Below are positions 3,464 to 63,400 of a DNA stretch of 64,000 nt, in pieces. Source of the DNA: Okamejei kenojei (lineage: Eukaryota); contig CM069165.1 of NCBI GenBank assembly GCA_035221665.1, forward strand, positions 19,902,001-19,966,000. Direction: 5' to 3'. Position 1 is the stretch's first letter. Every line of letters starts with the position of its first letter. Position numbers and translations under genes: made by a program. The notes under the pieces were generated by a model, which was not told the origin of the DNA, did not search any database, and saw only the letters and a list, made by a program, of their open reading frames with translations.

Positions 3464-3709
<246 letters not shown>

Positions 3710-5992: not shown

Positions 5993-6202
<210 letters not shown>

Positions 6203-21400: not shown

Positions 21401-24400
21401 TAACCTGAGCCCCAGTATTATTCTGGTAACAATGTTACACTTGAGTAACACCCTGATTTGAACACAGCACCGACATATTTACCTCCTGTAGGACATATCT
21501 ACAGGGGGAACATACACAACAATAGGATTTGTGTGGTGTAGAGAAGAGGATTTTGGAGTATACATTCATACATATGTATAAGGCATACAAGATAGTTTCC
21601 TTCATTGGTTATCATACAGAACAAAGAACAGGAAGTCACTCTAGAATTATGTACACCTGAAGGCACAGCAACTACTAGAATTCAGATAACCATAGAATGG
21701 AAAAGGCGCAAATGTGCCATAGACCAGATTTACAAGGACGCTGAAAGGACTGGGAATGGTCTGCCACGGAGAAAACGTTGGATAAGCTAGGATTGTTTAC
21801 TTTGAAACAAAGGTAGCTGAGGGGAGACAATTAAAATGTATAAAATTGAGGTCCAAATAAACTTGGAGCACACATTTCATTGAGCACAAGTGGGGAAAGA
21901 AAAAAAGAGTATAAATTTAATCAATAAAATGTATAGTCACCCAAAACAAATTTGAGATTTTAAGTCTCAAACAGCAGCCCACAAAAAGTTAACTGAGGAG
22001 TTTAAAGGAGTTGTGTAGGACATTCCCCAAAAGGTGCACTGCTAATTTAAATCAGACAGCAATAAGACAGAGCTTGATCCAAGATGGGGAGGGAGGTGCT
22101 AGAACAGAAAGATAGTGGGAAGGCAAGTTTACTGAGTTACTCTTGGTCAATTCAAACGGTGGAAGTTTCATAATAAGAAACTCTGAAAAACTAAGAAAAA
22201 GGAATTTTTAAAAAAGGATTCCAAGTTCGACAGGACAGTCTCATTGAGAACAGGCAGCATGAGGCAAGATGAGGAATCGGAAAGACCTGCTATACTTACA
22301 TCCTGACTAACCTGCAATGACACAGTGTGATAACTTGCTGGTACACTGTCATCTTCATCATCATCACTATGCAACTTTGATGGACGATGGTTAAAAGACT
22401 TGGACCGTTTCATCGAAGTCTCCTTTTCCTTTTGTTTCTTCTTTAGTCGGTTTGATTTGTCAAATTTGTATGTTTTAGATTTCCTTTCATGTGTTTTATA
22501 CCCTGCAACAAGCCCCAAATTACAAAAATACCAACTGTGATATCAGCAAACCAATGTGGAAGGAACAAATCCAATCCAATGGTCGACAAGCCATGAGGAT
22601 GGTAACACCACAATTTTAGCCACATGTACTTTCATAGATAATACCTTACCTGGTCTCAAACAATTCTGAAAAGAAATATACGTGGCAGTCTGCAAAACAT
22701 CATCTGCCACCCCTGTAAACTGCTTCTTCTCTTAGCATTTCACAAACATGCAGACGCTCACATGCATATCATGCAAGAATGGGTACTGAGATCATAGCTG
22801 TATATTAATCTTTACTGAATGACATGATGTAATGAAAAACAGCTGGATTCCTTAGTTATTACCAATGATTTGCATGTCTATGCCTGGGTTGATTTTTGAA
22901 AGACCCAAGAGGTTTAAAATTCTAAAATTATCATTGCTGGACTGTAAAGCAAAGCAAAAAAGATACGCATAACATTTTAATTTATTAGTCACAATTTGCT
23001 GCTTAATGTGAAATGCAGATTTTTAGTGCGGATCAAGAGAAAGGAAACACTTCCACAACTTACCACCGTTGAGATTTGCTTCTACAAAGATGCGAATTGT
23101 TTTTACACAAAGTTCAAAATTTTCTGGTGTTACATGGGCAGCATCTCTTACAATAAACGACAGTGATTCCACACACTTGATAAGCGACTTAGTATCGTGT
23201 GAGCCCAGATCCTGTCCCAAAGTTAGGCTGTACTGATTGACTAGAGGAGAGCATCCCGGCTTCATGCCTTGGCCAGAGGTTTTGTTGGTATCCAAGTCAT
23301 CTCTCCCCACCTGCCAAAAATATCATCAACAATGTGAGCAATCAGATTTAGAAGTTTAGAAATATACAAAAACATTCTTGCATTATTGCTTCTTTTAGGT
23401 ATATGGTATTAGTGTGCTTCATAATCATGTATCAGTATCCAAGTATATGAAACTCGCATTAAATAGCATCTTAATCAACGTCCCACGAAACAGCACTGTC
23501 AACCTTGTGCATTTAACACACTGCAAAATATTTTGAATTATTAAATGTGCACTGGGATTTGGAGACACAAGAAACTGCAAATCTTTAGTCAGTTAGCAAG
23601 ATCCCAACTCGAAATGTTGTCTGAGCATTCCCTCCACACAAGCAGCCTGACCTGTTGTGTTCCTCCAGCACGTTCTGTTTTTCATGTTGTGCACTAGGTG
23701 AGATAGTCAGTGAGCAAAAAGTTGAGTTTTCCAAGGCTTAGAGAGACAATTACTTTCCTTTTGATGTGTAGCAACTATTTAAATTGAAAGGAACATGTTG
23801 AAATGAATTGGCCGAAGATCCTGAGAAGAAGATTGTTTGAAAGTATGGTTTCTTACCATCTGGAATATAGAAACATATTCAATAATAACTTGCAAAAATG
23901 AAAATGCATTTAGTTTTGAGGTGGAATATATAGAATTCCGAAAACAAAGTTGGAGTACAACTGATTGAATTGCCCTTCTGAAAGAAATAGAATAAGTACA
24001 TCAATCCTTCTAAGCTACTGTATCATGGACAATGCACACACCAAGGTGCTCAGTTAATCCAAAGACATTGGTAAGGTCCAATTGGAGTACTGTGTATGCT
24101 TTGATTCGCCCTGCTATAGGAAGGATGTTATTAAACTTCAAATAATGCAAAAACAGATTTATAAGGATATTATTGGGCTAGCCAGAAGAGGATGGTTCTG
24201 CCAAGTCTTCTGTTCCTGGAATATTGGAGACCAAGGGGTGACCTGATAGAGGTTTATAAAATCATGAGGGGCAATGATAAGGTGAATTGCCAGTCTGTTC
24301 CCCAGCAAAGGGTAGTCTAAATCTAGTGGGCATAGGTTCAAGGCAAGAGGGGAAAGATTTAAAATGGACCCGAGAAGCAACTTCTTCACACTGAGGGAAG

Positions 24401-30400: not shown

Positions 30401-33400
30401 AGGAACACTTCTGTGTAGACAATTCTTCTGTGTAAACTAATTTTAGAAAACAATATTTTTCCATTTCCACAACAAATCTTTTCTTAAAGGATAAGTGACT
30501 TTCAATATATAAGTCATAAAAGTCTACCAAATGTTAAACATCTTGCAAAGAGAAAAAAAAAGTACTCTTTCCAGGCAGTTAAGCAGAATTAACTTTAATT
30601 TACCTTAATGCATTCCAGAGCTGCTTGCTTGGCCTCTTCGTTCTCTATAGAGGGTCCCCTTAGACCAGACTGTTCATTGCCACTTAGTGTGAGCCAACTA
30701 ACGAAACTCAGGACTGTGGATTCACCACTGCATTTCAATACAAAACAATTTAGTTCAGCTGCAAATATTTAAAGTCAATATTACACAAAATTATTTAATA
30801 TTGATCGACTGCACCGTTTAAGATGACCAAGTAGAACCATTTTTATTTGTAACAGAATTGGAAGAAATTACTTATTTGAAACTGTCGCTAAAATGCGAGA
30901 CCAGCTTAATGTATGACCCATTCATTCGTTAAATTTCAATAAAGGACATAAGCTACTACATTGCTCCTGACAAGAGGTATAAAGGGCATCAGAGACCCAC
31001 CCCATCCTGGCCACACGCTAATTTCATTCCTGCCATCGGGAAGATGATATGGGAACCTGAAAACTGTAAAACCCAGGTTCAGGAACAGCTTTTTCTCACA
31101 TCAATCAGGCTACTAAACACCACAACGTCCAAATAAGCTCTCAACTACATATACGGGAGCATTGGTTTGTCTTTGTGCACTATTATTGTTCGTTTGTATG
31201 CGTGTGTATATAAAAATATATACTGAACTTTTTGTTTCCATTTAATATATTGGTTAGAGAGTACTATGTTTACATATTTTGTTATTCTGCTGCAAGAAAG
31301 AATTATATTGTCGTGTTTGGGACATATGACAATAAAACACTCTTGACTCTTTTTCTGCCTCTACGGTAATTTATCCTGCCAAATTGTCCCATGGTCCCAG
31401 AGGCATTAAAAATGGGTATACTTTAAAAATAAGATAATTTAGTGAAATCTCAGAGATGTAGGAACAATTGTAAGTGGATGGAGTGAAGATGTGTGTTGTG
31501 ATGAAACTCCTGGTTTATGGCCAGAGTTAGCAAATTTACACTCCAGTAATTATCCAATTATTCTCATCCATTTTGACTTCCAGGCCCCCCATTTATAATT
31601 TCTTGCATTCCCGTTCAGATTCCCAACCCTCATCACCTCATTCACGATGCACTCCTCCTCACAACCCATCTTCCAACAGCATCCCCCAAATTCCATTCTT
31701 CTCTTCCCTTCTGAAAGATGCCCTTTTCTCTGCCAATCCTTCGCCCTTATCCAAGTATATTTTACCCTTCGTAACTTTGATTTGATCTCAATTTCACAAA
31801 AGCAACATCATGGTAAATGAACATGTTTATATTCCACATATTAACAATGCAGTGGTGGTTTCAAATGAATTGTTATTCCAACATCAAAATCCTCAGTCCG
31901 CCATGTAAAGATACATCCTGAGCAGACAACAAACTGCTGAAGCAACTCGATGGGTCAGGCAGCTGCCTGACTCGCTGAGCTCCTCCAGCATTTTTTTTTG
32001 CTCAAGATTCCAACATCTGCTGTCTCTTGTGTCTCTAAATATTAATCCTACCGATTTGAGGGTGTTTCTTCCCGCTGAAGTGAGATTTTCCCATTGGGTT
32101 CCACAAAGTCTTCTACCTGCACAAACAAAGATTCACTTGCTAACAAAACTCCAGAATAATAATTGATCAACTTAGTCTAAATACTTTCAGAACTCAGGTT
32201 AAATAAAGTTATACTCATTTTTTCTTGTTTAAAAGAAATCATGCCTATGTCAAACAGGTGTAATAGCTAGGAAAGTAATACGAGTGGAATATGGAGATAC
32301 TCCAATACAAAATTAATTGTTTTTAAAAAGAAAAAAAACATGGGTATATTGTGTGCTTACCATGCTGGAAATTCGCTTGTTAACAATTTAGTGGACACTA
32401 TTTGTATACCTTGGCTATGCAAGCAAATAATTTCACTGTGACTTGTCACATGTGATCAATTCATTCACTTCCTTGACCTAAGCTATGAACTCTTTCATTT
32501 TTGACAGATACCACCTGACCCGAGTAGTTCCAAGAATCATTGTTGCTACTGCAAATTTCCATAACACAGTATTTTGCTTTTGCCATCGCTCTGATCCTCC
32601 AAGCAAGGACATTAGGATGACTTGCAGTCAATATGGTAAGAAATCATAGCCTATTGACTACAGGTAATGTATTTGAATAAAATTTCAAACTGGCTTTAAA
32701 AATTGATTAGTCGTGACCAGCAGGTGGCAGTATTGCCTCAATATTATCACAAACAGACAACACCACTAATAGGCCTAATTTTATTGGGAGCCTTTCATTA
32801 TTACAGACACTGTTGTTTCCATATCTTTTTTTGAAATAATTAACCAGTAAGGAAATAAATAAACTGAAATTAGTTTATGATTGTTAATACCTCAAGTTGT
32901 ATTTGTAGATTTCACAACCGAGCTTCCTAGGGATTCCTCCACTCGACAAACCCTCTAAAAGCGAAATCCAATACCAAATGTCAAGTGTGGAAATCTACAA
33001 GTCATGGGCAGTTCTACACCTTCACCCTGCGTGGTGCATATATAATGTAGTCAAAGTTCACCTCTCTTTGTCCAATGAAACAATGCACTATTTGTCTTCA
33101 CAAACATTGTTTTATTTTAATAACCTCTTCAAAGTCTCAATGGAACTCACTACTGTTCTGAACTCAGTAATCTCAAGCTCCTCAATTGTAAGGTAAGTTT
33201 GTGACATAAACACTCCAGCTTGGGTTGGGCACAGCCGGATTGAAGGAGGAGAGGGTAGTCTCTAGAACAGTACCAACTCTTCGTAAAAACTTATAGCTTC
33301 AGATGTAGGTTCAGATGTAGGTAGTAATCCAGAATTTATGCCGTGCACAAAGAATTTCTGCCACACCACAAAAATGAAAGAGATGGCTTGTACTCTGTCA

Positions 33401-36400
33401 ATTCATGCTTCAATAATTCTAACTGAAAAGAAAATGCTGACCCAACACTTTCAAATAAATCTGTAATGTCAGTCCAACAGTCAAATTTAACTCGAAAAAA
33501 AAACATGGATTTTTTTTCCCCTCTCCAAGACCATGATTGTCACAGCATGATATTTGAGTGAAACATGAATGGTTTCATGATTCTGATGGGGGAAAAGGAA
33601 GCTGCTCCCATTGAAATCATCAATTATATTCTCATTTCTGACGACATACTTTTCTCTAATCTTTGACTTGTCAAGGTGGAGTAAAAAGAACACAATGTAA
33701 CTACTTAACATTAGGTTAGTGCTCAACAAAATATCACATCACAACAATTTGTTAATAAATCTGAGATTAACATCTAGCTCAGATTTCACCGGAATAATAA
33801 AAGTAGCATTCTGAAGCAGTAATTCATGAAAGTTCAATGCTGGTGCACGAGGCAATGAACAAACAGGAAATCACAAAGAGGTGAAGGGAAACTGATGTAA
33901 CTACAGTTTCAATGCTAATGCCACTCCAAAATAGTTTACATGTATTTTGAATGAACATGCTTTGCTTCCGCCAATCGTCCTGCTCACCAAACATAAATTG
34001 GATTACTGTTCATTGAACATTTCCACTCAAAATGACCACAATCTCCCAGAAGTAAAAAGTTAGATTACTTCAACTCATTCCGAGAACCAGCGTGCCATCC
34101 TTGACTTTATGAAAAGGTAATTAATAAATTTAATGGCAGTGTTAAAAGCTGAAAAGGTACAAAGTTCTAGGCAGCACACCCTGCTGATTGGAGTCAGCCT
34201 GTGGAAAAAAATATTGGAACACAAGTTGAGTAATGGAAGAGAAGAATGTTGACTGGGTGGGGAAAATGGGACAGGTTGGAATTTGTAAAATGAGTGTTTG
34301 GGCTGTTGGAAGAGCAGGAATGAAAATAGAGATACGTTTGCAATGAGCAACTGGCCAATAGTCTTTGATACGTTATTATCAAATGCACCAAGATACAGTG
34401 AAAAACTGTGTTTTATCCAGTCAAGTCAAATCATGCTATGTATGACTACAATCAAGTCCTACACAAGTATGCAGGTACTGCAAAGGGAAAAATACTAGAG
34501 TGCAGAATATAATGTTACAGTATTGCAACATTACAGTCCCAGAGAAAGAAGCCCAATGTCTGCAAATATGTAGGTTGGAAGATCAGGACTACACCCTAAC
34601 TTATGGGAGGATCGTCCAGTACTCTTATGACAGAGGGGAAGTAGTTGTTCCTGAATCTGGTGGTATGTGCTTTCAAGCTTTTGTATCTTCTGCCCGTAGA
34701 GAGAAGAGTGAATGACCGGAGTTAAAAAGGTCCTTAATTATGTTGGCTGCATTCCAGAGGCAGTGTGAAGTGTAGATCAAGAGTGTTTAACTGTCAGATT
34801 TAGTGGATGGTGGGGAACCAGTTATTGAGACAGGTCACTTTATTTTTCTTAGGGATTGGAATGATGCAGGTTTCCATTAAGCAGAAGGTGATTTTGAAAT
34901 TGCACGCCACTGAACTGGCTGTTTTTTTCACCAATATCTTCAATCTCTCGCTTCAACAGTCAACTTTCCCTAGTTGCTTCATAGAAAGTACATCATTCTA
35001 GTCCCCAAGGAAAATGACCTGTCACAATGATTACTGCACAGTAGCTTATTGCAACAGTATCTCAACACTTCTATTGCTCCTCTTTCAATAGCCAAATACT
35101 AATTTTACAAATTTCAACTTGTCTCATTTTTTCCCCACCAGTCAACATTCTTCTCATTCATTACTCATCCTGTGTTGTTCCAATATTTTTTCCACAGGCT
35201 GACTGTAATCACTAGGGTGTGCTACCTAGAACTTTGTACCCTTATAGTTTTTAAACACTGCAATTAAATTTATTAATCACCTTTTCGTAACAATCTACAC
35301 AGCCAACTTCGCCATTTTTTGTTCCCTCCCTCTTTGTGCAGATTAATGCTAAAAATAACATTTTGTTTTCTCCTAGTTATAATTGAATATTTCCAAGGTC
35401 AATTAACAACCTTGGTCAATGCATGGACATTGCATGATGGGCATTGCATGCTTTCAGAGCATTTGCAACAAGAACATTTATTCAACGTATTTAATATATT
35501 TTCCCATACTTGCACGAGTACAAATTTTCAGTAAAATGTTCTGCATTCCACTGGAATGTTTCTTAATATCAAAGGACAATACAGTCAACAAATTTGTTCA
35601 ATGCAAAAAGCATACTTGTGCACCAAGTCTCCTGATAGTTATCCGAATTAGTGTACTTCAGACATCACAAGTTTCATGAGTAAATGCACTGTTCCGACAA
35701 TTAGGGTCTGGATGAACAGGGTTAAGTTTGGAGGGTTTCAAGGACCATAAACTAAAATTAATCTGAATCATGCCCATTTTTCCCCCCCATTATTTTCACA
35801 AGACTGCATGAATAACAAGCCTCTCCTTGAAATGGTATTACCCCATGTTCGTAAAATATTATCGTCTATGTAGTGAAGTTACTCCCACAACAGAGATGAG
35901 GATTTCTACCAACTATCAAGATGTATTTATTCCTTATTATTCCATGGATTAAAAATGTCTTTCCTTCTCAAACAACAAATTTGGCCCTGTCCATCATGTA
36001 CAAGGACTATTAACAGATTCCTTTTTGTCCGAACGTCTGTGCACCATGAAGTTAAGGAACCTAAAGGGGGCAATTTAAGCCATACTGTCTCCCACCAATA
36101 TCATCATCTCATTTTACTATGTGTTGGGATTTATTTTACAAAAAATGTACATGAGCTTGTCTGTCACAATAATGTCTTCATCTTTTTGCTTGGAAAAAAA
36201 TATTTCTTTATTTCATAGAACAACATCACAACGAGCATAAATAGCCATAGGCATTACTGTATTTGTAAAAGTCACCTCACATATTCACCATACTTAACAG
36301 TGGGAAGTAGTTCTGGAGGAAATAATTACCTCTATCATGGCTTTGGGCAAAAGCTCGGCACGGAAAAGTTGCAGCATCGCGTCCATAATGTTCTTCCACC

Positions 36401-42400: not shown

Positions 42401-45400
42401 TATCCTAAAATGTCCCATTTCTAAAAACCGTTACTTTAATCTGTTTATGGAACTGTGATCCATGCAAATTTACTGCCCAATGCTTATGCCAAAAGATTGA
42501 TCGATTGTAATTGATTGGGTCCAAAACACATTGGCCTGAACATGGGAAAGGTATGATATGAATGAGTTTTTAAACTGCAGCCAAATTCAGTTGAGAAAAA
42601 ACATAAGAGATGCAAAAACACTGAATCTATGCCATTGAAATGAGGAAAATCAATTTTGAGAACCACACTGCAAAATATGATCTTCAGTTTTTTATTTAAA
42701 CCATCTACATTGAAGTGTTATTAAATTAAATCTCAAGGCAGCTTTGAAATTACTCTGCCACGAACAGGCATTAATTTATCATTAATGTTGAGAAGTATTG
42801 CATGCCTAACTGCTTTAAACCCAAGTCATTAATATGAGTGATTTATGTTATGGCAACGGCAACAAGATACCAATTGGTTAAGTGGTCCTTAAAATCTTAA
42901 TTAAACATCAAACCCTTAGGGGATATTTAAAGGACCCTTTTGTTAAAATAATAATAGCAATTTAAAATGGATAGAATCAGGTAGGTGGCCTTAATCTGAC
43001 ATATTTTCTCAACAGCCTCACATACAAACTATAAAAATCAAGGCAGGGAATAATATTTAGCAGTCAATTAAAACAATTTTATAATATATCCTGTATTAAG
43101 AGATTATATTTTTCAGTAACAAAGCACCAATATTAACAATTACCACCATAATTTGTATTTTATCAAAATAAAAAGTAATAATGCTGAAGACATCAAACAC
43201 GGTCAAAGTGTGGCAACATTGAAGCCATGCAAGTGCTCATCACTGAACCTTTCCAATAGGAGCTTTGACCACCTAACGTTGACATTTCGCTTCAGCACCA
43301 TTGCTAAAACTCTCACCCTCGATACCAAATGGGGTCACCATTGTGATCAGAACCTTAACTGTGCCAGCTACATAAATGTGATAGATTGAAAAGCAGGTTA
43401 GAAGCTGGGTGCCCTTGCAAAGGTGCATCACCTGATGACCCAACACCCTTTCACTACCAACCAGGCACAGGTTAATGTGGTAATAGAAATTACACCTGAT
43501 TGAGTATAATTCCAAAGTCAGTCATGCACAAAATCAAATGCTAATAATGAAAGCGGTGGGTGACGTGCTTTCAAAAAGAATATGTGCAGATTATGACATG
43601 ATTACTATGACTCAATTATAAACGCTAATGACGCAGGTTTCATGTAGGCGTTGTGCTGAGATTGAACAGTAAACCCTTTCATCTGTGTCTTGTGTCTTTA
43701 CATTCTTATTATTTCAGCAATTAATAATGCAATGTAATAGTGAGGAGTAAATATTTTCAAAACTGATTCACCAAAGCTCCTGAAATACCTACCTCCAGTG
43801 TCATTGGCACATTTTGCTTACGAACGTTGTGATTATGCTGATCCGTATTGAGCATTATTACAGCATAAGCAAGTGCAAAGCAGGCATCGTTGTTAACAAA
43901 TGGTGATCCATTAATTTTCTGCACAGAGTAAGAGACAAATGTAGAGATTTACCACTCAGTAAATGCAAAAAAAAGTTCAAATGTATAATTTTCAATTAGT
44001 ATCAACGTGCCGATAACCAGGTGAATAAACGTTGAGAGACAAACATATACAAGTTTCCTCTTCTCCTTCCATGGTGTCAATGACATTTTTTTTAATGACT
44101 TTTTGATTGCAACCAGGTGGAGTAACAGGGAAAAACAAATCTTACAATGAGAAAACACATTCATTAAGATCTAAATCCATATTAAAATTATTCAAAATCA
44201 ATTCAAATTAAATGTTTTGTGAAATACTGCAAGCTCTTTTAAAATTATTTTCATCAAAATGAAAAAAATGAATTTATCACCTCTGAATTAAAATATTTTC
44301 TCAGTTTTCCCCAAATCTTTTGCAAGATTTTGCTCAGCTAAGAGTGTCTCTTGTTGTAAAGCATCTCACTTAGTAGCACAGGGACTAGCTTTCCACAGCG
44401 GGAACATTTACCACTCTTAAAATATAACCATGGATCTCCAATCACTGCTACTAATAATTAATTTAGCAGAAATCTGCCAACAATCATTCTGCAAGGTACA
44501 CCAACAGCAGAGACGAATAGAAAAGATCCTATAGCAGAGCAAGATAGATCACTCCTGCTAGATGCAATGGGCTGACGTGTAGTACGCAACAGAACAGAAC
44601 GTGGGCCTTTTTTTCATCCATTTCCGTGACCCGACCCGCAGTGTAATTAACAGTTTGTGTTAATAAATTAAAATTATGAAAATGAGGAGATGATTTTTAC
44701 CAAATAACTTTTATTTTTACGAGGATATTTCCGTAACCGGCTTCGGTCTCCGCACTAGTATCTTTGCTCCGCTATGGGATCTTTGGTGCGGAGACGGAAG
44801 CCGGTTACGGAAATGGGGCCTAAAATTATCCATGAATCTGCCCATGATCATACTACGTCTTTTCCAATCTATCTTGCTATAGGATCTTTGACGAATAGTA
44901 CACAAACGGTCTCCAAAGTGCTGTTAGTTGTTGCTGAACAGTAGCTGTACATTATTATTACTCAGAATTATTTTTACATATCCATAATTTATTACATTTT
45001 TATTTTGTTTTTGAAGTACATACATGCCAATGATCTGTAAAGACTTCTAATAATCTGTGAATTACAGGGGCTTCACCAGGAAGTCTGAAAGCTTCTAGAT
45101 ATGAGCGCAGTGCTTCATCAATTCTCAATCCTTGGAATGTAAATGTCCTAATTGTAAAATAAGAGCACAAATTATCAACATAGCCGCTTTACAATTTGAA
45201 AAAGAGTTTCACTGACTGTTAATTTCACTACAATGGTCAACATAATCCCAACGTTAGCAATTTTAAACCACATAAAACCCAGATCTCTCTCATATAAACA
45301 AAATGAGAATAACTGAAATCTACTTATAAACTAAACAAAACATCTGAAAGGGCAGAAAAGTTGTACCTTCCTCATTTAATTATTGATGCAGATACTGGAG

Positions 45401-48400
45401 AAGGATCAGCCAAATATTACATGCAAAACAGAGAATTGGCTTACTTCAATGGAAATTTAAAAAAAGTAACAATGATAAAGGAAACAGGCCATTGTTAGCT
45501 GGGGCTACCTGAAGTGAGAGAAATCAATATTCATACCACTGTGGGTACACAAAAGGCTGGAGAAACTCAGCGGGTGCAGCAGCATCTAAGGAGCGAAGGA
45601 GATGGGCGACGTTTTGGGTCGAGACCCTTCTTCAGATTTATCGGACAGTGGGACAACATGCCCTCTGGTGCTTGTTGATCTCCCCCTGGGGATTCCTTTT
45701 CACTATGTACTGTCACTTGGTATTTGGCCCACGGTTTCATCACCCTTGTCCAAATCTATTTGTCTTACACTTGCCCTTCATAGATTTGTGGGAGTCAGTC
45801 TGGATCCACCCTAGGTTTGAGTTTATGCTAGATTTAGGCCATTGGGCTTGTCCGTCTGTAGAGCTTCTATCCATAGCCTCTCTGCTCTTTTCCGTCTCCC
45901 TGTTGTCCAATTTATGTTTGTTTCCAGGCCCATGATCTCTAGGGACTGGATCCCATGTTGCTGGAAGTGTCTGCTAATGGGTATGGATTGGTTCCCCCTT
46001 CTGATGTTGCTGAGGTGTCCTGTCAGTCTGACTCTGATGCTGTTACCCGTTTCGCCTATGTACAGTAGGTTACACTCTTTACATCTAATTGCATACACCA
46101 CATTCTTTTGCTCACAGGTTATCCTCTGTGCTATCTGGCCTCTCTTCCCTGTCACCCTGTTCTCTATATTTTTGGCTATTACTAAGTGGCTTCATACCAC
46201 TGGTTTCTCTCACTTCAAGGAGCCCCGGCATTCCGTCTCTTTCTATCCCTCCCCCACCCAATTCGCACTAGCTTCTCATTTTCACCCAACAAACAGCTTA
46301 TAATGGCCAGTTTCCTTTATCATTGTTACTTTTTTTGCATATCTTTAATTCATTGTCCTTTTTCTCTCCACTTCACTGTCTATATCTCTCCGTTCCCTTA
46401 TCCCTAACCAGTCTGAAGAAGGGTCTTGACCCGAAACGTCACCATTCCTTTCCTCCGGTGATGGTGCCCGTCCCCCTGCATTACTCCAGCTTTTTGTGTC
46501 TATCTTCGGTTTAAACCAGGATCTGCAGTTCCTACTTAAACTAAAGGCCAAATGAGAATCTTTTTCTAATCACATATAAATTAGTTCTCAGTCTTTAACA
46601 AACATTGATGTGGAATTATGATATATATTGTGTAATTTTTGAATAAATTTGAAGCGATTACTCGAAGCCAACATTTAATGTCAACGGATCAGAGAGAGCA
46701 GTTCAGCTGTGCACAAAAATTTCAAAGACAATTTCTCCAAATGCCTTAACTCTTGGATCAGATTGTTAAATATACACCAAAGGAAAACATATGTTTCTGG
46801 GAAAAGATGAACACAATTATTACTGGGAAGCCAGCTAAATCATGTGACCCAAATAAGTACAAAATATATATTTATCATTGAAATTGGAGAAATGGATTCC
46901 ATCCGGGTTATGACATTAACAACAATGTTATACCATGCACTGAAAAATTCAAAACTGGTTTTGTTAAACAGTAATTATGTTTGTAAGGAAATAAGTATTT
47001 GATACAATTAATAGTTATCCCCTCCCCCAAAACCTCAGCTTTGGTGGATCAAGCTAGCAGATCACTGCACTAATCATTGCACTCATAATGCTAAATAACA
47101 GTCAATAAATAACTATTTTTACTGTTGACCCTTTCCCCAGGGATATCCAATTAATATTTTTCATATTATATGTTACTCATTGTACTGAAATTATTTTACT
47201 AAAGATGTTTTGAAAATGCATTTCAATACCCAACAAAACTGTCCAGAAGTTCAATACTTTTCCGATCACTGATAAACTCGCCAATCATTTTCTTGTCCAG
47301 GCGTGGATTTTCCCGCAGCCACTGAGCTACCTCACGATTATCCATGGGAGATGCAAGCAGGCCCTTTTCCTGAAGAAACTGAATGCCTTTCTTTGGTTTC
47401 TGGTTAAATTGTTCCGTTCCAGTGATAAGAAGCTTGTGAAGAGAAAAGATACAAAAACATGATACGGTTTTTTGAAGTGCTTGGAGGTACTTATATCTTC
47501 CAAAATTAACTGTTTAGGATTATATTTATACAAGTTTAAATCAAACATCTAACATGATTTAGGTCATGTTAACAAAGCTGCCAAGATTAACTTTCTATTG
47601 AGGAATCTCTTTAGCAAACAGAAATTGAAAGTAACCATAAGCTTTGCAATAAAGAGCCCACATTTTATTAACATTAAATATTTAAGACAATTGATAGTAA
47701 TCTCATTAACAGAGTGGTGTCACACCTGTTCTTTCAGATTAAGGAAGAGCAGAAATGGGAGTGAAGAGTAGCGACCCAGATGCATCAAGGCAAAACTACA
47801 ATTGGTAGGCGAATGGAAAGTATTGCGCAGGAAGCCAGTATCAGAGGAATGTGGTGTTTACAGGGATCAGGAAGNNNNNNNNNNNNNNNNNNNNNNNNNN
47901 NNNNNNNNNNNNNNNNNNNNNNNNNNNNNNNNNNNNNNNNNNNNNNNNNNNNNNNNNNNNNNNNNNNNNNNNNNNNNNNNNNNNNNNNNNNNNNNNNNNN
48001 NNNNNNNNNNNNNNNNNNTTTACCACCACCATGAAAGTTAACAGGCACTTTATGCATGTTCCATGTTATTACCATTGGATAATAACATAGTCGTAGGTGC
48101 AGTTGTAGTGGGGTCGCCATGTAGTTGTGGGTAGTCAAGGTAGTTGTAGGTAACTTTAGTTATTTGCCTTTGCTGACCGGGCATTTTCAATGGCTCATTG
48201 GGGTAAAAAAACGTAAGCACATTTTCAGAACCGCCAAACTTCACAGCTGTGTATCTTTGGCTTATTAAACGTTGTCTGGCTTCTTAAAGCTGTCTCCACT
48301 CCTTCTCCCCCCTCTTTTAAAGGACTTACCGTACACTGTGCTAGCCGTCTTAACTTTCCTGTTCATTGTGGTGTGTGGCTGTATCACCTTGGCTTTGGAC

Positions 48401-51400: not shown

Positions 51401-54400
51401 AACATTTATTCTGTAATCAATTGGCAGTGTAAGATCCCGCAAAGACTGATGTGATAACTGGAGTCAAAAACTGCAGATGCTGACAGTCTGAAACAAAAGC
51501 AGAAAATGGTAGAAACTCTTAGCAGGCCAAACACCATTGTGAGAAAAGAACCAAAATCAATGTTTCATGTCAGGGATATGTTTCATGTCAGCAGTATTAG
51601 ATAGCTGAGAAAACAAGAAATTTTAATTTGCAGAGAAGGATGGTGCACATCCAAATTACAGATGGTGCACATCCAAATTACATCCATTACATTAAAAAAC
51701 AGCTATTAAAGACAGAAGGGGGGGAGAAAAACATTTTAAAAATTCCAGCCACTTCAAGAGGGAGAACAATTGGTGGTTACCCAAAATTGCCAAATGCCAA
51801 GGATGCAACATACCGAGGTGAAAGATGAGGTGCTCTTCTAGAAGCTTCCACTGAGTACATTGGTGGACTTAGTTGACAAAAGTAGAGAGATTGTGGTGGG
51901 AGTGGGATTGCAAAATAAAGTGTCAGGTGACTGGAAATTCAGGGTTGTCCTGTGAAGATGAACGATATATATTGAACAACAAGCCACTGAATCTGGAGGC
52001 ATATGGGTGGAAGCTGAGGGCAAGGGAGAACCTATCCTAATTCTGCTGGGAAGAGAGAGGGGGATGGCTCCTCCCTCGCATCCATCCAGGCACCCCAAGC
52101 AATCCTTCCAGATGAGACGGAGGCTCACATGCACCTCCTGTAACCTCACCTCCATATGCTCCTCATGTGGCCTCCTTTACATTGGTGAGGGAGAGGGTGG
52201 ACCAGGCGAATGCTTACTGAATCGTCCATTATTTTAACTATTTTAACTCCTCTTTCCATTCCCGTGCTGACCTTTCTGTCCTGGGCCTCCTCCATTGCCA
52301 GAGTGAAGCAACATGGAAACTGGAGGGACAGCCCCATATATTCCACTTGGGTAGCTTAATGACATAAACACTGAATTATTTAATTTTAGGTAACTAGCAC
52401 TTAACTTAACTAGCAACTTAATGACATAAACACTGGATTATTTAATTTTAGGTAACTAGCACCCCCCCCCCCCCCCCCCCCCCGCCCCTCCTGGACTTGC
52501 GACCATTTCTCCCCCCTCCACACTCCAACCTCTGGCTTCACAATTTGCAACTCTTCTATCCATTCCTCACACCTTTTGTCCTTTCATCTCTGGCTTTTGT
52601 TCAACCATCTGCTTCGCAAAACCCTCTCTCACCTGTATCCGCCTATCACTTGCCAGGCTTTATCCTGCCACCCCCCACCATAATATTCAATCTGAAAAAA
52701 GGTCCTTATCCAAAACATCACCTATTCACGTTCTCCAGAGATGCTGCCTGACCTGCTGAGTTACTCCAGCACTTTATATCTTTTTTGTAAATCAACATCT
52801 GCAGTTCCTTGTTTGCACATGAAAGTATTGCACTTTGTCTTCTGTATGCACATTCCTTCAGAACTCAATCTTGAATTTAAAATTTCATTCCTTCTCTTCA
52901 CAGGTTTAACTGTAATTTTTTTTTCCCCTTCAGTTTTTACAATAGTTTTTACAACAGCTTCTTCCCACACCAAATAACAGATATTCCTCTGTCCTCTCCA
53001 CTGCTCTTAGTTTACCACCTCCTTTGGAAGAACGCCATTATTTTAGTACATTGGACTGTCAGTCTAAATCCTGTGTTCAGATCTCTGGAGTGCAACCAAA
53101 TCATTAAACATCTAACTCAAGGGCATGGGTACTTTCTTACAGCGACAAAGAACAAAGCACCAAAAAATTCACAGAAACCACATGATGCAAAATCAATTTT
53201 TCCATCAGCTGTGTAGAAAATATATTTTTGTGTTCAATTAATTGGGCCGGTTTTCACTGAGATGCACTGTTTTCACACTGCTGTACTGCATTGATATGCA
53301 TTGTCAGTTCCACAAAGGAAAACTCATTTGACTGAGAAGTGTCTTGAGCCGAGTGGAAAGACATTGAGAGAATCTCATGTGATCACATCGCAACATATAT
53401 CGGCTGGACCAGATACGACCCACCTGTGGATATCACCTGAATAATTGCAAATCCAAATACTTGAAACCACACAATACCTCAAACTGGTTACATCTCCACC
53501 TACACAATGTGTTCGCTCTTACAGGTGAGAGATTTTACATTGTTTTCAGAAATATTGTTAATGTGATCCAACAAGTTGGAAGATGTGAGAGCAGATCTCC
53601 AGCGAGCTGCCACTGTACCAGGGTAACATAGCCGTAAATCACAGCCAAGCAATTACCAACAGAGCTCGACCAGCAAAGTTACAGCTCGATGGTTCTTTAT
53701 TATCACGTGTCCCGAGGTATAGTGAAATTCTTTATTTTTTGCATACAGATCAGTAAGATTATTACCATGCATATGTACATCCCCAATTAAGTGTAAAAAG
53801 CCTAGAAACAGTCAACCAAGTCCATATGCAAGAGTCGCCAGGTTTTGGCACCATTTCAAAGTACCAGCTGCAGCTGGCCATAAAGGCCTTTTGCAGCTGT
53901 GGACATGAACCAAATCGTCACGCAAATCGTTCAAATCAAGTTTTGAAACTATGGCACATAATGAAATTATAACCTCACCTCAAGTGGGAATTTTCTGGAT
54001 GAAATGTCTACTAAATAAATTCCTTCAGAATCCTTCAGAAGCAATGAATTGCCAAAAGCTGCAACTGTTCAGCATCTTTAACTATTTCAAATGTTGCGAA
54101 TTTATAGTTATTTGACACGCATCTTCATTGATCCTCAAACATTCAAATCCTCAAAATGTAACCTGTTAATTTTTGTACCAACCAAACTGATTTAGCTGTA
54201 GTTTGTTTCCAGCAAAGAATAGAGAGATGCATTTCACAGCCATGCATTTATTTACGGCAAATATTTTTGTTCAGCAATTGCATTATCATTTACTTAAAGG
54301 CTTGCCCTGAAATCCTTAAACACATAACTTGATGGCATGCAGGTGTTCACTAACACATTGGCATTTACCACCAATAAAAATTCCAAAGGCTATCTTAAGA

Positions 54401-57400
54401 ACACTACTTCAACTGTCCAAGGTACAAAATAATAGATAATGCTAAGAGCTTACAAAAATACAACAGTAAATTAAGTAGAGTAATAGGTGATCTTCCTAAC
54501 TAGAGCATGAAAAGACAATAAACACCTTTCAAAGAATTGCAATATTATTTTGATTGCACATGTTACTAATTGTGTCTGACATTAAGTATGCTGCGGCTTT
54601 TTTACCTCACTTTCAAGCAGGTCCAGCCTTAAGCCAATTGGACCGATTGCTCCCAATTGGGCACTGCGCTAATTTTCCGTATTTCGAACGGAAATTCGAA
54701 TTCACGTCGTTAAATAAAGGTTTTTTTTTTAAACATTCGCCTTGTTAAATACGGATTTTTTTAAAAAACGAACATGGATAAAAACCGCTGCACCGGCCAT
54801 CAGACAAAAACGATTTGTTAACACTTGTTAACAGTCAGAAGTTAACACGTAGTTATATAATGTGTCATCAATGCATCGATCCACATCCTCAGTAACTGTA
54901 ATTGTGTTTTGACCAAGTCTTAATGACGCCACGTTCCTTTGAATAAAATTCACGGGACTCCGTGAGTATTATTAATTAATAAGAATTATTAATACTTGGT
55001 CAAAACATAATTACAATTATGATCATTGTGATCATGGCTGATCGTCCCCTATCAATAACCCGTGCCTGTCTTCTCCCCATATCCCTTGACTCCACTAGCC
55101 CCTAGAGCTCTATCTAACTCTCTCTTAAATCCACCCAGTGATTTGGCCTCCACGACCCTCTGTGGCAGGGAATTCCATAAATTCACAACTCTCTGGGTGA
55201 AAAAGTTTTTTTTCACCTCAGTCTTAAATGACCTCCCCTTTATTCTAAGACTGTGGCCCCCTGGTTCTGGGCTCCACTGCCCGCTTATCCATCATCTGTT
55301 GACCCACTCCGCTCTATGATCTTTGCTCTTGAGCTGGTCCCCTCACTGTTCAGACGGAGAGCACTGCGAGAGGCGAGTGGGCCGGCAGAAGGCGCTGAGG
55401 TCCCAGCGGCCGCTCGTAGCCACACGAGCTGCTTCCCTCACCGGCCACAATATGGTGGCTCCAGCTCCGGAGCACCGCGGTGAGTGAGTGGGTTACCGGC
55501 ATGATCCCCGACCCCCTCCTTCTCAATACTCCTGCCCTCCCCGCAACTTTACCCCTAGCCAGACTCCCCACACTCTGCAAAAGGAACTGTCCCCCCCAAT
55601 TGGTCCTTGGAACTAGTATTGTCATTCAATAAGATCACAACCGATTCAACTTATCCCGGTGTGCTCCCGTTATTCCCACCATCTCTCCACCTGCCATCAC
55701 CATCCAACCCCCACCCTTCAGTTATTTAGAAAGGAGGAGATTTGGAAGCCTTGGGCAAATTGAATTGTTACTTTCTTTATTTTTATTATTTATTTTTATG
55801 GAGAGGAGAACAATCTGGGCATGCGCGGTTTAAGATTTTTAAAAATCCGACTGACTGCCTACCCTGAGTAATTACTCACAGCAGGTGCCTGAATATGACT
55901 CATTTATAATTATATATTTTGATGAAAATTGTTCCCAATTGGGGCCCTGCACCTCCTAAGGTCGGCCGCTGCTTTCAAGGAATGCAAATACGAGTCATTA
56001 TTTCATTTGCTGCTCACATGATCGTCAAGGATGCCATTCTAGTTGGGTGGTCTAATATAAAAATTAAGTCTAGCATCACCTAATCTGATCCAAAACCAAG
56101 CCAAGTACTCAAGATTTTCCCTAATCTAACCCATCATTTTCAGATTGTCTGCCCGCTCCCTGCAATTCCTTCTTACACACAACAAATGTCAGCCTCTCTC
56201 AGGCTTTGCAGCATAGCCAGACTCTAATGTTTTAATTAGGACATATACCCAACACAAACCCGGCAACCAGAATCATGCTCCTGTGGACGCTGATCGGTAA
56301 TCAGACTATCTGCCATTCTAATGACTAGCAATGCCAGTGCTTCCGAGTAGAATACTTATTGACTTCTTTAAATAGTCAACCATAAAATAATATGGCCATT
56401 TCTTTCCATCAGTGAAATGAGAATGCTGATACAGGATACTATCCCTCTCCCCAATAAACTATTTACGTACCGTTATTTAAGCAGAATGCGGCATCGGCTT
56501 ATTATTTTCTGTAGTGGAGCCAATTCTCTTGAGCCCTTCTCGAGGAACTTGAGCCCTTCTCAAGTAATTTATGTTCAAACTTGAGTCAATTGCAAACATG
56601 GTCAAGTAACACAATCTTTACAACAAGGACAACGAAATTCAATGACAAAAACAGCTGTCACTTTTAACTGTTTGTATTTTTGACAGAGCAGCTGATGTAC
56701 GAGTAGAAAAGACACACAATTATTTCTTTATTGAAAATAATTTTGCAAAACATGAGCTCATCTAGCAGATTAACCATCCCCACGCCTCATCAATTCCATC
56801 AATACATCAGAATGTCAAGGGAAAAGCATGAACTTAATCAAGGACCATTTTCACCCCGTCATTCCATCTTCTCCCCTCTCCCAAAGGGCAGAAAATACAG
56901 AGGCTTATGAATACCATCAGATTCATAAACGGATTCTTCCTTGCCATTACCAGACTACTGAACAATCCTCCCATAAGCTAGGGGATAGTCCCATCTCCCA
57001 ACCTATTACAATCTTGCACTTATTTTATCTGCACTTTCTCTGCAACTATAATGCTATCACGGCGTAACACTATATTCTGGATTCAGATCGTTTACACTTT
57101 GCACTGCTTGAACCTGTGTACGACTTGTTCGTACTCATGTATATTATGATTTGACTGGATGGCTCCCACATTTTTTCATGCTATCACGGTATGTGTGACG
57201 ATAATAAATTAATATGATACCATTGTGGCTGTAGCAGCTCTTAAACAACAAGTGTCCCATCCCCTGGCTCTATTCCCTCAGAAATACAGTGCCCTGCTCT
57301 GCCAGGCCTGCATTGCAGCCATCTTTAGCTTATGCTTGTTTTGGGAGCTAGTCGCTAGTTTTCTCTTCAGCATATAAAAGGCATGCCAGAAAAGGCATTC

Positions 57401-60400
57401 AATTGGGTTCAATTCGGGTGATTGACTTGGCCACTTAAGAATTGACAAATTAAGCTTTGAATAAACTCCTTTGTTGCTTTAGCAGTATGTTTGAGATCAT
57501 TGTCTTGCTGTAGAATGAACCCCAGCCAATCAGTTTTGAGGCATTTGTTTGAACTTGAGCAGGTAGGATGTGTCTATACACTTCAGAATTCATTATGCTA
57601 CTACCACCAACTGTTGTATCATCAATGAAGATAAGTGAGCCAATACCTTCAGCAGCCATACATGCCCAGGTCATAACACCCCCACCACCATGTTTCACAG
57701 ATGAGGTGGTATGCTTTGGATCTTGGGTAGTTCCTCCTCTCTTCCATACTTTGCTCTTGCCCTCACTCTGATATAAGTAAATCTTCATCTCATCAGTCCA
57801 CAAGACCTTTTCCCAGAACTGTGGTTGCTCTTTTAAGTACTTCTTGGTAAACTGTAACGGGTCATACTATTTTGCAGCTAACCAGTGGTTTGCATCTTGC
57901 AGCGTAGCCTCTGTATTTCTGTTCATGAAGTTTTCTGCGGACAGTGGTCATTGACAAATCCACACCTGAAGAGTGTTTTTGATCCTGTCGGACAGGTGTT
58001 TGGGGATTTTTCTTTATTATGGAGAGAATTCTTCTGTCATCAGCTGTGGAGGTCTTCCTTGGCCTGACAGTCCCTTTGCAATTAGTAAGCTCACCAGTGC
58101 TCTCTTTCTTCTTGATAATGTTCCAAACAGTTGATTTTGGTAAGCCTCAGGTTTGGGTGATGTCTCTAACAGTTTTATTCTTATTTCTCAGTCTTACAAT
58201 AGCTTATTTGACTTCCATTGGCACAACTTTGGTTCTTATGTTGATAAACAGCGCTAAAATTTTCCAAATGTGATGGAAAGACTGGAAGAAAGACTAGGTG
58301 CTGAGAGCTCTCTTATACCTGCATTAAGGAGGCATTTACACACATCTGAGGAATTACAAACACCTGTTAAGCCATGTGTCCCAAACACTATGGTGCTCTG
58401 AAATGGGGGGGGGGGGGGGGGGAAGAGGGGAGAAACTATGTATAAACACAATTGCAATTTCACAATTGTACATGGTGAAACCATCATGTATAAAAATACC
58501 CTTTAATAACATCTGACAATGCACTTTAACCACATGTGATTTTTTTTCTATTACAAATCTCAAATTGTGGAGTACAGAGGCAAATAAATAAATGATGGGT
58601 CTTTGTCCCAAACATTATGGAGGGCACTGTAGCCCCAATTTTCTTTTGAAAGATTATTTATTCAGACTGATCTTGACAGGTAACCCCCAGATAGCTACAA
58701 TAATTGCATGGTTTTAAGAAAGGAATTGCAAGAAAACTTGAGCAATGAAACACACACACGCAGGGAGCAAGCTTCAGTTGCAAAGTAAGGGACAAACATT
58801 GACATTACAGTTTGACAGAAATGTCCTTATGTTGTAATTAGTTCCACCTAATATTGATGGTGAGATGTGTGAACATTATTATTTCACAACAGAGTTTCCA
58901 TTAAGCTTGTCAAAAATACAACATTTATTTAGGTGGCCCTCAACCACCTGTAGACAATCTACAAAGGAAGTAGTACTCACCATTAGAGTTCTCTTTGCTG
59001 TGATTAGTTTCCATTGTCAGTGTACTTCCATCCTTGTCCTGTTGGAGAGCATTATTGAGAACTCGGGCTTGGCAGTGAGCCTCCGTGCTGTCAATAACTG
59101 TTAACAAGGCCTCGAGTGACAACAAGTGAGTGGTGTACAGTTGTCCAGATACAGGAAAAGCATTCTACAAAGATAGGAAAAAAGTAGTTCAGTGTAACTG
59201 TGAAACAAATCTGCCAAATAAATCATATTTCCATAAATGCTTCAATAAGCTTGTTTGTATGATACCCCATAAAAGTTTACAATTGTAAAATGCACCAAAG
59301 TTAAATAACAAACATATTCTGTAGGTGGGGCTGAAGCTGGCTCCCACAAAGTAGACATGACACGGAGCACTGCAGAAAAAACAATTGCAGAAAAAAACAA
59401 TTCTTATATAACTTCCTATAATTCTATATTTTATATTCTATAATTGAATTGCATAATTAATGGTTTCTTTCAAAATATAACGTCGTTTAACAAACGCATA
59501 ATTATGTCAGCCTTTTCTTGTGACTAGCATATACTATGTTTTCCTGATACACATTTTCAAAAGCATGTTTTGTTTACTTTTCCTCACTTCTATCATCCAG
59601 ACAATTATCATAGTACTGATTATGAATTTCTTAATCAACCTCTTTCCTTGATAAATTAAATTGAGAAATACTACTACAATAAGATGAGAGATGAACATGA
59701 TCAATAATTCAACAGAGTGAATGTACCAAAATGTACCTTGGAAAGAAGTTTGGTAAGATCTTCAAAAAGATTACAACAGTAGAAATCACAATCAAAGTTG
59801 ATGTACAGTTCTGTGGCAAAGCTTGGGATTCGCCAGAGTTGAACTAATGCCTCCAAAGCCATCTCTTTCATTTCATAGGGCATCTTGGGATTCTCTGATG
59901 TGACCAAGTCCATTAGTTTCTTTAAATACATCTAGGGAAAAGATATCACTCCCATAAACTTCAAGAGTAAAAAATCATGGCACATTACAGTTATCTATAT
60001 CTAAACTAGAATGTTTTTTTAGCTTGCTTGAACAGCTAACCAAATATGATTTCTGATACCAAACCAACTTACAAGAAAAAGACATCAATCAAAAGCAAAG
60101 CCATTCAAACAAATTGACGTTTGTCACATCAAATGAAAATCTGCCAGTTTAGTTTAAAGATACTGTATGGAAACCGGCCAAGTCCATGCTGGCCATCAAT
60201 TACCCATCACACTAATTATATGTTGTCCCACTTTTTCGTACATTCCCTACAGATTAGGAGCAATTTCCACAAGCCAATTAACCTACAAACTTTTGTTAAA
60301 GAAGGAACTGCTGATGCTGGAGAATCGAGGGTACACAAAAGGCTGGAGAAACTCAGCGGGTGCAGCAGCATCTAAGGTGTGAAGGAGATAGGCGACGTCT

Positions 60401-63400
60401 CGACCCGAAACGTCGCCTATCTCCTTCGCTCCTTAGATGCTGCTGCACCTGCTGAGTTTCTCCAGCCTTTTGTGTAACCTACAAACTTTCACCTTTTTGG
60501 GATGTGGCAGGAAACCTGAGATTCGGAGGAAACCCATGCAGTCACAGGGAGAACGTGCACATTCCACACAAATAGTATCCGAGCTCAGGATAGATCCCGG
60601 GCTTCTGACACTGTAAAGAAGCAGCTCTACCAACTACCCCACTGTGCCACCCAATGGCATAGCTGAAAGACAGAGTGCACTTCTAAATAAAATACAGGAC
60701 AAGCCCTCATTTAGGTTCTTTGCTGGTACCAAAAAGGCTCAGATTTGTTTGGATGCCCACAATTATATTCTTAAACCCAATGCAACTGGAAAGTAATTAA
60801 GTATTTTGTACTTTAAAATAGCAACATAAATGTCAACACTTAGGAAAGTTTTGGAGATCAAAACAGAAAAATTAGTTGGAAAATTATTTTATAGCCACTC
60901 AAACATTCAACATTATATTAATCCTTGTGGAGATAAATTTTATGATCCGTGTATTCAGAATTCAAATCTCTTCTGTTTAGCCAGCTGAATACGAATGACG
61001 CATTTCATCATATTGACTTTCAGTCTGAACAAGGGTCTTGACCCGAAACGTCACCCATTCCTTCTCTCCAGAGATGCTGCCTGTCCCGCTGAGATACTCC
61101 AGCATTTTCTGTCTATCATCATACGACATATTATTTTATGAAGATAAAGATAAGCCAATTTGTTCACCACGGAGTTTAAAATGAATAAGTAAAAAGTAAT
61201 GCCCAGAAATTTGACACCCAGAACTGAAAAACGACAAGATCTCTGCATCAAGATTAAAATAAGTATTAAAATGCCCATTATTGTTGATTGCCATGAACAG
61301 TTTCATGAAGCAGGTTCAACTACCAGGGATTATAGGTTGAAATACATTAAATTTCACTTACCTCAAGTTGGAACTTAAGATGTTGCCTCATACCCTCAAA
61401 TAAAAGGAAGCATAGGCGGAGAGAAGTGGCGTATAAATTAAGACGTTCTACAATTAACAGCTGAAAAGCAAATGACATGAAACACTTATTCTATGATGCA
61501 AAGCACTAAATATGCAGTCACAAAATGTTCATGAAATTAAAAATTCCTACCTGGAACAGGTGCCGGCAGAGCTCATCTTTAATAAGACCCAGCAATGATG
61601 TGTAATTAGCAATGGATGCTGATTCCAATGCTATTGTAAGCAACTGCAAACCCATATGAATCATCACGTCAGAGTTGTGGCGATCATGTGGATTGGTGAG
61701 GGATATTAGGAAACGGAAGAGCTCTCGGATACATGGCAAACCATATGGAACCAAAGCAGCACCTGAGAGGGAGACTTGCACATTAGTCAAAGTTACACAT
61801 AATACCCCATATGAAACTTCAGCCTTTCCATCTACCTCATCTCAACCATTCAGCGCATCTTTCTGTCCCCAACTCTCACATACTTAGTTTTTTACCATAA
61901 TGTCTGAACTGGAAATGTAAATCCTTCAGTCAAGTTGATGTGTGCCGAATGAGGCCACATGCAAACTTTATTTAGTTTCCTTTCAAAGACATCGAAGCCT
62001 CTTGTTATAATGAAGGCTAAGGTGTAGATGTTGAAGTTTTTACTATTAACGGCATCACCTTATTTTACATCACTTTAATGAATTCTGTAATGTTGGTTAA
62101 ATATTTCTAAGCATTTTGGTATCCTTTCCTGCTCTTTTTAACAATGTTCTCTATCTCTATTTACCCTCCGATATTTTCATCCTGTGCAGAATTTAACATC
62201 TTTCTACCATTGACATTATGATGGTCAATCCATATTTCCAGGGTTTAGTTTATCTCAGAGACTCAAAGTCTGAGACGGATCCTGACCCGAAACATTGCCG
62301 ATCCATTCCCTCCACAAATACTGCCTGACCTGCTGAGTTACTGCCGTACAATGTGTTTTGCTTTAGATAATAAATGAAGGTGTGAGGCAGGTTTGTTGAG
62401 TTGGAAATGTAAATGTAAATCCAGAGGGAGGAAAGTAGCAGGAGAGGGTGGGGTGGTGGATGGAAGAGGGAAATAGGTGGGAGTCTAGGTGGGACAAAGC
62501 GGGGGGCAAGGGAAATGGGGAAAGGGTTGTTGTGAGGGGTTACCTAAAAGTGGAGAATGCAATATTCATATGCTTGGTTGCAAGCTGCACAAATGGAATA
62601 TGAGATGTTGTTCCTCCAGTTTGCATGTGGCCTCATTTGGCACACATCATCTTGACTGAATGATTTACATTTCCAATTCAGACATTATGGTAAGAAACAA
62701 GTTACATTTGTTTCATGATTAAAATGAAAAGGAACCCTTCCATTGCTCTGATTAATCTTGTTTGATTCCAAGATATACAAGCACTAACACCAACCTTCCT
62801 TCTGCATTGACTGAGTAAACCTAACCCCACGAGGGTTAACATAGTCCATATCATGTACTTCATGGATTGAAGCAGTGTCAGATATTTCTGTGAGGGAGTC
62901 ACGATCTTCTAACACTTCTGGAATAGATTCCACCGATGTGAATTGAGCCTTCTCTTCCTTCGGCAAAAATTCATCTAATCTTCCGCCCTTCAAAACAAAA
63001 TTAGCAAGCTTCAATTCAATTAACTTACTTAAACCCAAAGAAACACTGTAATAATAATTTAGAACAATGTTCAAACTTTCTACATATAGAGTCATAGAAA
63101 CATGATCTTCAGCCACGTGGACCATCAAACACCCATGTTTTTATTCTCCTCACATGCATATTAACTCCAAGATCGTACCACTAACTTGCACACTCAGGCA
63201 ATTTACAGTGGTTAATGACTCTACCAATAAGATGATGGGAAACGTTATCTGTCACAATCACACAGGATGTCTTTAATAGCTTTCTTCTCCTTCCACGTAA
63301 CCTGACAGAAGAGATTAAACAAGTTCTGGATTAGGGAGCTGAGGTTTCGAAGGATAGTGAAAAGATTCCTTGTTCAAAGAAGTGGGTAATGTATGCAATG

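Follow-up and report, generated by a model that had tools for sequence, protein, structure and literature searches.

The repeats scattered through a 64,000-nucleotide stretch of the genome of Okamejei kenojei (contig CM069165.1, positions 19,902,001 to 19,966,000; called the window here, with coordinates counted from its first letter) are, with a probability of roughly 0.8, truncated terminal repeats (pLTRs) of an endonuclease-bearing Penelope-like element (EN+ PLE), the hammerhead ribozyme of which is likely selected in active elements and likely an idle, decaying passenger in intronic copies. The motif is the already known minimal hammerhead of Penelope-like elements. It was described (min-HHR) in the pLTRs of metazoan Penelope-like elements by Cervera and De la Pena in 2014 (PMC4209133); literature searches at the level of listings found no dedicated paper on hammerheads in cartilaginous fish.

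The focal copy occupies 46201–46540 (+), antisense to the host gene, and its BLAST relatives identify it as the 5′-truncated end of a Penelope-like element, composed of the last ORF codons, the pLTR and a tail. An earlier note on this DNA had listed a dispersed repeat of about 100 bp at seven places; all seven copies were recovered by profile search and the dispersion stands, but the size does not, since the focal copy measures about 340 bp. Its motif, at 46413–46440 (+), reads exactly as had been claimed: CUGAAGA, an extra A, a 4-bp stem II (GGGU/ACCC) with a CUUG loop, GAAAC and GUC, thus both core boxes, a palindromic ACGU and a GUC triplet. The AGT right before C3 (46410–46412, +) is where many short family copies begin and likely where the element’s RNA starts. 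Ten profile matches in 16801–63800 correspond to the seven listed copies and three further pieces, namely the minus arm (60297–60402) of an inverted pair at 60.3–60.5 kb, an old fragment without the first core box (23607–23687, +) and a fragment of the downstream flank only (31962–32007, +); BLAST, repeat finding and profile search of the window agree on the copies and on the extra pieces. Position C3 of the core was placed by the profile search at 18515 (−), 45635 (−), 46413, 52692, 61025 and about 62270. Among the ten matches the focal core is the single intact one, as the earlier note had it, and the changes that it named in other copies (G8C, G12A) are present. Both core-bearing copies in host-sense orientation (18488 and 45608) carry G12A, a CpG transition: the first (18404–18521, −) together with C15.2A, the second as a stub (45527–45636, −) whose 5′ end is joined to a fragment of a second family. 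The remaining copies are an old one with G8A, G12A and G16.2A (52684–52812, +), a head-to-head inverted stub pair joined inside stem II, both arms of which are without the first core box (60297–60498), a copy with G8C (61019–61126, +) and an old copy whose first box lacks one base and whose ACGU is broken (62266–62374, +).

The host gene was recognized by Pfam matches to Sec7-domain exons, all on the minus strand: one precedes the focal intron (47223–47438, GBF1-like), one follows it (45009–45152) and a third lies at 43796–43918, so that the orientations of the copies relative to the gene are correct; the gene is probably GBF1. Head to head with the focal copy lie the GIY-YIG C-terminus and 3′ end of the second EN+ Penelope-like family (45640–46191, −; Pfam GIY-YIG, E 1.4e-8). 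The whole of 45460–46540 is a compound insertion: the focal plus-strand copy has a 12-nt inverted piece at its 5′ end, a second-family fragment is followed by a stub of another subfamily joined via a 2-nt microhomology, and an ORF-end/pLTR piece with an internal deletion is also present. Decayed GIY-YIG C-terminal fragments of the family-1 type (the family of the focal copy) lie upstream of the 52692 copy, at 52146–52400 and 51692–51868 (+), with a 62-nt direct repeat nearby at 52355/52417.

The parent element emerged from a genome search with the upstream part of the focal copy, which gave relatives running on into GIY-YIG and reverse transcriptase (RT) frames. From 150 matches of a protein search for long open frames, 20 loci picked for frame length were retrieved, and 18 of these 20 contain the intact-motif pattern. 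In the full element at locus L091, two pLTRs (1861–2171 and 5816–6096) flank an ORF (2179–5769) of 1197 amino acids, RT then GIY-YIG; Pfam finds RVT_1 (E 5e-6) and GIY-YIG (E 0.004) in it, both below the curated cut-offs, and gave zero matches for four short ORF pieces. The repeat stands as direct pLTRs on both sides of the ORF in L091, L092, L093, L095 and L098. The hammerhead motif is found in both pLTRs of L091, which confirms the Penelope pLTR origin proposed in the earlier note, and the focal copy is 82–83% identical to both of them and 89% identical to L050 over 339 nt. Some ORF-bearing copies of family 1 form large inversions, head to head and with arms of several kb, at L089/L090, L100, L101, L103 and L107.

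As read from its translation, the L091 protein has CCHH in the endonuclease and a CX4CX2C linker, as in the description of the Neptune/Nematis elements (Craig et al. 2021, PMC8557442). Family 1 shares with these EN+ PLEs, as described there, the C-terminal GIY-YIG domain with CCHH, the zinc-finger-like linker, 5′ truncation, partial tandems, inverted 5′ copies and a tail; the truncation, the inverted 5′ copies and the 3′ tail were all encountered in family 1 (inverted pairs make up 242 of 580 matches), and on the CCHH and linker marks it is a candidate Neptune/Nematis element.

The motif is not a product of chance, since 68,012 exact intact copies occur in the 2.76-Gb assembly (about 25 per Mb) against none in the reversed control, and a structure descriptor gave 45 matches in a 1.28-Mb sample of gene bodies against 0–1 in each of five shuffles. 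The features of a minimal type I hammerhead that were found are the CUGANGA and GAAA boxes, U16.1 and H17, together with G10.1–C11.1, the palindromic 15.2–16.2 and, in 42 of the 45 descriptor matches, an extra nucleotide after A9. Stem I consists only of the pairs 2.1–1.1 and 2.2–1.2 (pairing probability about 0.05) and falls short of the 4–5 bp of helix I in a typical min-HHR; because a published variant of D. virilis also has a 2-bp stem I (PMC4209133), the motif was filed as a short-helix min-HHR. Pair tables and descriptor bear out the anatomy given in the earlier note, including the stem I of about 2 bp, and hammerhead monomers are likely inactive, as it suggested. Scoring against the Rfam hammerhead models, which it proposed for a genome-wide consensus, gave no match at E up to 10, either in the window with its focal copy or in the pLTR of L091 (1950–2200).

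With the min-HHR as described in PMC4209133, family 1 has in common both boxes, the extra nucleotide between 9 and 10.1, G10.1–C11.1, the palindromic 15.2–16.2 without loop 3, the presence in both pLTRs and the dispersed, truncated state of most copies; it differs in stem I and in a stem II of 4 bp with little stem variation. The 68,012 intact motifs compare with about 9,000 reported for Xenopus in the same paper, under search definitions that differ. A type III reading via an upstream GUC was rejected because stem I fails at the first pair, and the wide-pattern matches L287 and L288 were dropped for want of a clean stem II. A propagated G8C subfamily was likewise rejected, the many G8C loci being a query effect (G8C in 5 of 315 in an unbiased sample).

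Conservation of the motif across subfamilies argues for its selection in active elements. Across the core and stem II, no position out of 22 has a common non-CpG second letter, against 11 of 47 in the flank (judged by eye; Fisher p 0.013); subfamily differences lie in the flank and spare the core. Five clusters built on the flank alone, between which flank differences are inflated by construction, agree in their majority letter throughout core and stem II. None of the catalytic positions varies between subfamilies, and the variation at N7, loop II and position 17 stays within hammerhead limits; the subfamily variants inside the motif are tolerated ones (U–A to U–G at 10.4–11.4 and 2.1–1.1, GUC to GUU, loop II). 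After insertion, CpG sites are lost in the core just as in the flank, and the non-CpG core of inserted copies is slightly less diverged than the flank (5.6% versus 7.5%, p 0.006), perhaps through seed or alignment bias. We read this pattern, from the letters of the copies, as probable selection on master copies and none after insertion.

Clear covariation of stem II, the absence of which the earlier note had counted against its reading, was not seen within family 1: the subfamily changes are one-sided, U–A to U–G only. Single changes at pair 10.3–11.3 break the pair in 1473 cases and keep it in 1340; the double change to A–U is seen 84 times against 29–32 expected, an excess that mixed copy ages could give. 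A compensatory stem II subfamily was looked for within family 1 in pair tables and genome-wide pattern counts and none was found, so that support for the fold comes from the identity of the core and from changes on one side of a pair. Folding predictions do not stand out (z −1.2 to 0.8), an alternative GAC/GUC helix hides the cut site in four of five of them, and in the cofold of two copies an extended stem II duplex (−22.9 kcal/mol) is favoured over a hammerhead-like dimer (−12.7 kcal/mol).

These observations bear on the view that the sequence is kept for another job (initiator or promoter, RT stop, protein-binding hairpin), the likeness to a hammerhead being vestigial with no cleavage at any stage. 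The motif (Y)CAGT is initiator-like, and it is there that the stubs begin; besides the missing compensatory change, there is no start peak at the cut site, and inversion junctions often fall inside stem II (starts +14 to +22 from C3). Naiad elements moreover thrive without hammerheads, according to PMC8557442. Against this stand the fixed catalytic positions (N7, loop II and position 17 being variable, within hammerhead limits), the second family, in which boxes, extra A and G10.1–C11.1 recur beside a different stem II, and the in vitro cleavage reported for related motifs (PMC4209133, PMC11167929); we consider a vestigial motif unlikely, if worth keeping in mind, and prefer a ribozyme that is selected in active elements.

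How the copies arise may be read from their ends. Most matches are units of 105–130 nt with common ends: 3′ ends fall into two groups, +98 to +103 and +121 to +128 from C3, and starts are concentrated directly before C3. In 84 non-inverted stubs without an upstream pLTR, position −1 is T in 68, −2 is G in 58 and −3 is A in 51, with −4 near background; no cap signature was seen, an extra G standing at −4 in only 6 of 41. No cleavage footprint was detected either, starts at +26 to +30 amounting to 3 of 338 non-inverted and 5 of 242 inverted matches, no more than in neighbouring bins. The frequent stub starts three bases upstream of the core, next to the near absence of starts at the cut site, make it likely that the RNA being copied was uncut. 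A reading of the CAG before the core as a splice acceptor is not supported: the stubs keep the A and G of this CAG, and no GT..AG joint is among the 15 joints listed out of 54 (in contigs, with guessed RNA status). Head-to-head pairs account for 242 of the 580 matches. Secondary start peaks are seen at +15 to +20, inside stem II, and at +40/+41, in inverted and single copies alike.

In the mechanism that we propose, the element’s protein would begin reverse transcription internally, at two sites (about +101 and +125 from C3), and copy the uncut RNA up to its 5′ end, which would lie some three bases before C3; together, these two RT start sites and the start before C3 would yield stubs of 105–130 nt, often as inverted pairs. 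Given that stem III has no loop and stem I only 2 bp, cutting would occur only as a dimer and probably only with the element’s protein, so that host pre-mRNAs would be spared. The dependence on protein is taken over by analogy from a Poseidon-clade element, PAc of Anolis carolinensis. According to Frangieh et al. (2024, PMC11167929), the PAc ribozyme needs the element’s protein for cutting, ribozyme mutants go on inserting, the template is mainly uncut RNA, and the tail is bounded by two RT start sites. PAc and family 1 have in common an ORF with RT and GIY-YIG, a hammerhead in the pLTR, two 3′ end points bounding the tail and no ends at the cut site; they differ in the linker, which is CX4CX2C (Neptune/Nematis type) in family 1, unlike PAc, and in the start of the ORF, well downstream of the ribozyme in family 1 versus inside stem II in PAc (PMC11167929). 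The start and end points, together with the even strand counts in gene bodies, fit the view that PLE hammerheads are dispensable for insertion.

The uniform ends of the short units and their density, about 452 matches per Mb, could also mark a family in its own right, non-autonomous and SINE- or retrozyme-like, that has separate masters and is moved by the Penelope protein. Non-LTR retrozymes are reported to arise from pLTRs (Li et al. 2026, 10.64898/2026.07.22.740005); they share with family 1 this derivation and a type I hammerhead, and are present in the one chondrichthyan surveyed there. But they form head-to-tail arrays, whereas family-1 copies lie dispersed or in head-to-head pairs and pass into the ORF without a break; the window copies, dispersed or inverted, are not head-to-tail units each with a hammerhead. 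Short and long copies have common subfamily letters and grade into ORF-bearing ones, and the fixed ends fit the known geometry of pLTR plus tail (PMC8557442, PMC11167929). A separate family appears quite unlikely, and the SINE-like module envisaged in the earlier note probably gives way to truncated copies of the element itself, the longer of which pass directly into its GIY-YIG and RT frame.

The earlier note raised selection as one possible cause of the mutated sense copies; were intact motifs to cut host pre-mRNA, by themselves or when paired with a second copy, those in sense orientation in introns should be purged or mutated. This was examined in 133 stretches from 50 gene-body intervals plus the window interval 16801–63800 (1,283,785 bases in total), oriented by colinear Pfam exon matches (myosin, tyrosine phosphatase, Sec7), not by annotation. 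The profile was built from 61 natural copies; short anchor intervals, remainders below 3.5 kb and copies cut by chunk borders were left out, as were the 283 of 580 matches that do not span the core. The 580 matches lean to the sense strand (305 versus 275 antisense) and 297 span the core; profile and descriptor matches alike confirm that many copies lie within host pre-mRNA. Core-intact copies number 64 of 168 in sense and 47 of 129 in antisense (p 0.81), and strictly intact ones, with stem II and the 15.2–16.2 pair, 21 of 168 (12.5%) and 22 of 129 (17.1%; p 0.32), with p 0.12 at E 1e-10; without inverted pairs, the strictly intact are 18 of 112 and 15 of 82. An independent descriptor counted 21 intact motifs in sense and 24 in antisense, the exact intact pattern 9 and 10. 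All direct strand contrasts are thus non-significant (p 0.12–1.0), and the 95% interval of the sense share of strictly intact copies is 0.33–0.65: strong purging of sense copies is excluded, mild purging still being compatible with this small sample.

Several details nevertheless lean towards purging. Both core-bearing sense copies of the window are G12A, the strictly intact share is the lower one in sense, and G12A itself is found in 46 of 168 sense (27%) and 28 of 129 antisense copies (22%; p 0.28). Relative to the flank, sense copies have diverged more in the core than antisense ones (one-sided p 0.041, or 0.075 if G12 is left out; two-sided 0.08 and 0.14, respectively). Per strand, the sampled gene bodies contain 9 and 10 exact intact patterns, fewer than the 15.8 of the genome average, and Xenopus retrozymes are described as depleted in introns (10.64898/2026.07.22.740005). 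On the other side, the deficit relative to the genome mean is present on both strands, genes with more intact sense copies number 11 and those with fewer 9, five genes contain two or three intact sense copies, and two mutated sense copies out of two have a chance p of 0.39–0.73. The CpG at G12 is intact in 48% and 50% of copies by strand and three other CpGs in 44–59%, so that G12A is CpG decay, the simpler of the two origins considered in the earlier note. The depletion check, proposed there genome-wide, gave no bias in counts over the oriented 1.28 Mb, which tells against selection on intact sense copies, with a weak core-to-flank residue in the direction that it expected. Purging by cleavage of host pre-mRNA is, on balance, very unlikely. 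Since intact motifs are as frequent in sense as in antisense, the gene-body copies are likely idle passengers; some 25 intact motifs per Mb without strand bias mean that the ribozymes likely do not cut host transcripts.

The second EN+ family (window 45640–46191, −; loci L244–L273, L316 and L317), the protein of which is 32% identical to that of family 1, differs in its ribozyme and its surroundings. A complete three-stem type I hammerhead lies upstream of its ORF in L317 (712–773, +) and in L316 (about 6276–6337, +) and is absent from the truncated window copy. As read from the sequence, that of L317 has an 8-bp stem I, a 4-bp stem II, a 5-bp stem III and GUC, and resembles family 1 in its boxes, extra A and G10.1–C11.1, while its stem II differs in sequence and is likewise paired; the Rfam model HH9 gives a weak match (16.2 bits, E 0.16, gathering threshold 52), and its predicted minimum-energy fold, that of the L317 motif, differs from the ribozyme fold. 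The 3′ end was located in 27 of 29 loci, and in 24 of these 27 the element continues into an AACC(C)T(T)AACC repeat. Among 94 matches on 44 contigs (C1–C44), 21 lie within 160 kb of the contig start and 6 of the end, lengths being known for 65. At the single contig end that was read (C43), a 5-kb degenerate CCCTAA tract is directly followed by 6.3-kb tandem units; some copies near right-hand ends are in opposite polarity, and many copies are internal.

Endonuclease-bearing PLEs are described as inserting genome-wide and endonuclease-less ones as telomeric; in the endonuclease-less Athena and Coprina elements, the 5′ end points toward the chromosome tip. We give a nearly even chance to the second family being a vertebrate EN+ PLE that targets telomeric repeats, forms 6.3-kb arrays behind terminal (CCCTAA)n with the 5′ end toward the tip, and carries a full hammerhead predicted to cut as a monomer; literature searches at the level of listings found no paper on such a telomere-array EN+ PLE family. 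If true, it would bridge EN+ and endonuclease-less PLEs, and two contrasting families would coexist naturally in one genome, one dispersed, with a minimal ribozyme that is crippled and stays uncut, the other in telomeric arrays, with a complete ribozyme; in this pair the role of PLE hammerheads in cutting units out of tandem transcripts would be directly testable.

Other features of the window were noted in passing. The intervals 15011–16597, 57400–58250 and 10–267 are presumably Tc1-like transposase remnants with inverted terminal repeats, a name taken from their translations. An 86-nt hairpin at 44.7 kb, matched as an Rfam miRNA, was dismissed as a chance match. A run of 144 N occupies 47875–48018, about 1.3 kb from the focal copy, and long inverted repeats unrelated to the hammerhead copies are found at 44728–44813, 61887–62698 and 34142–35254.
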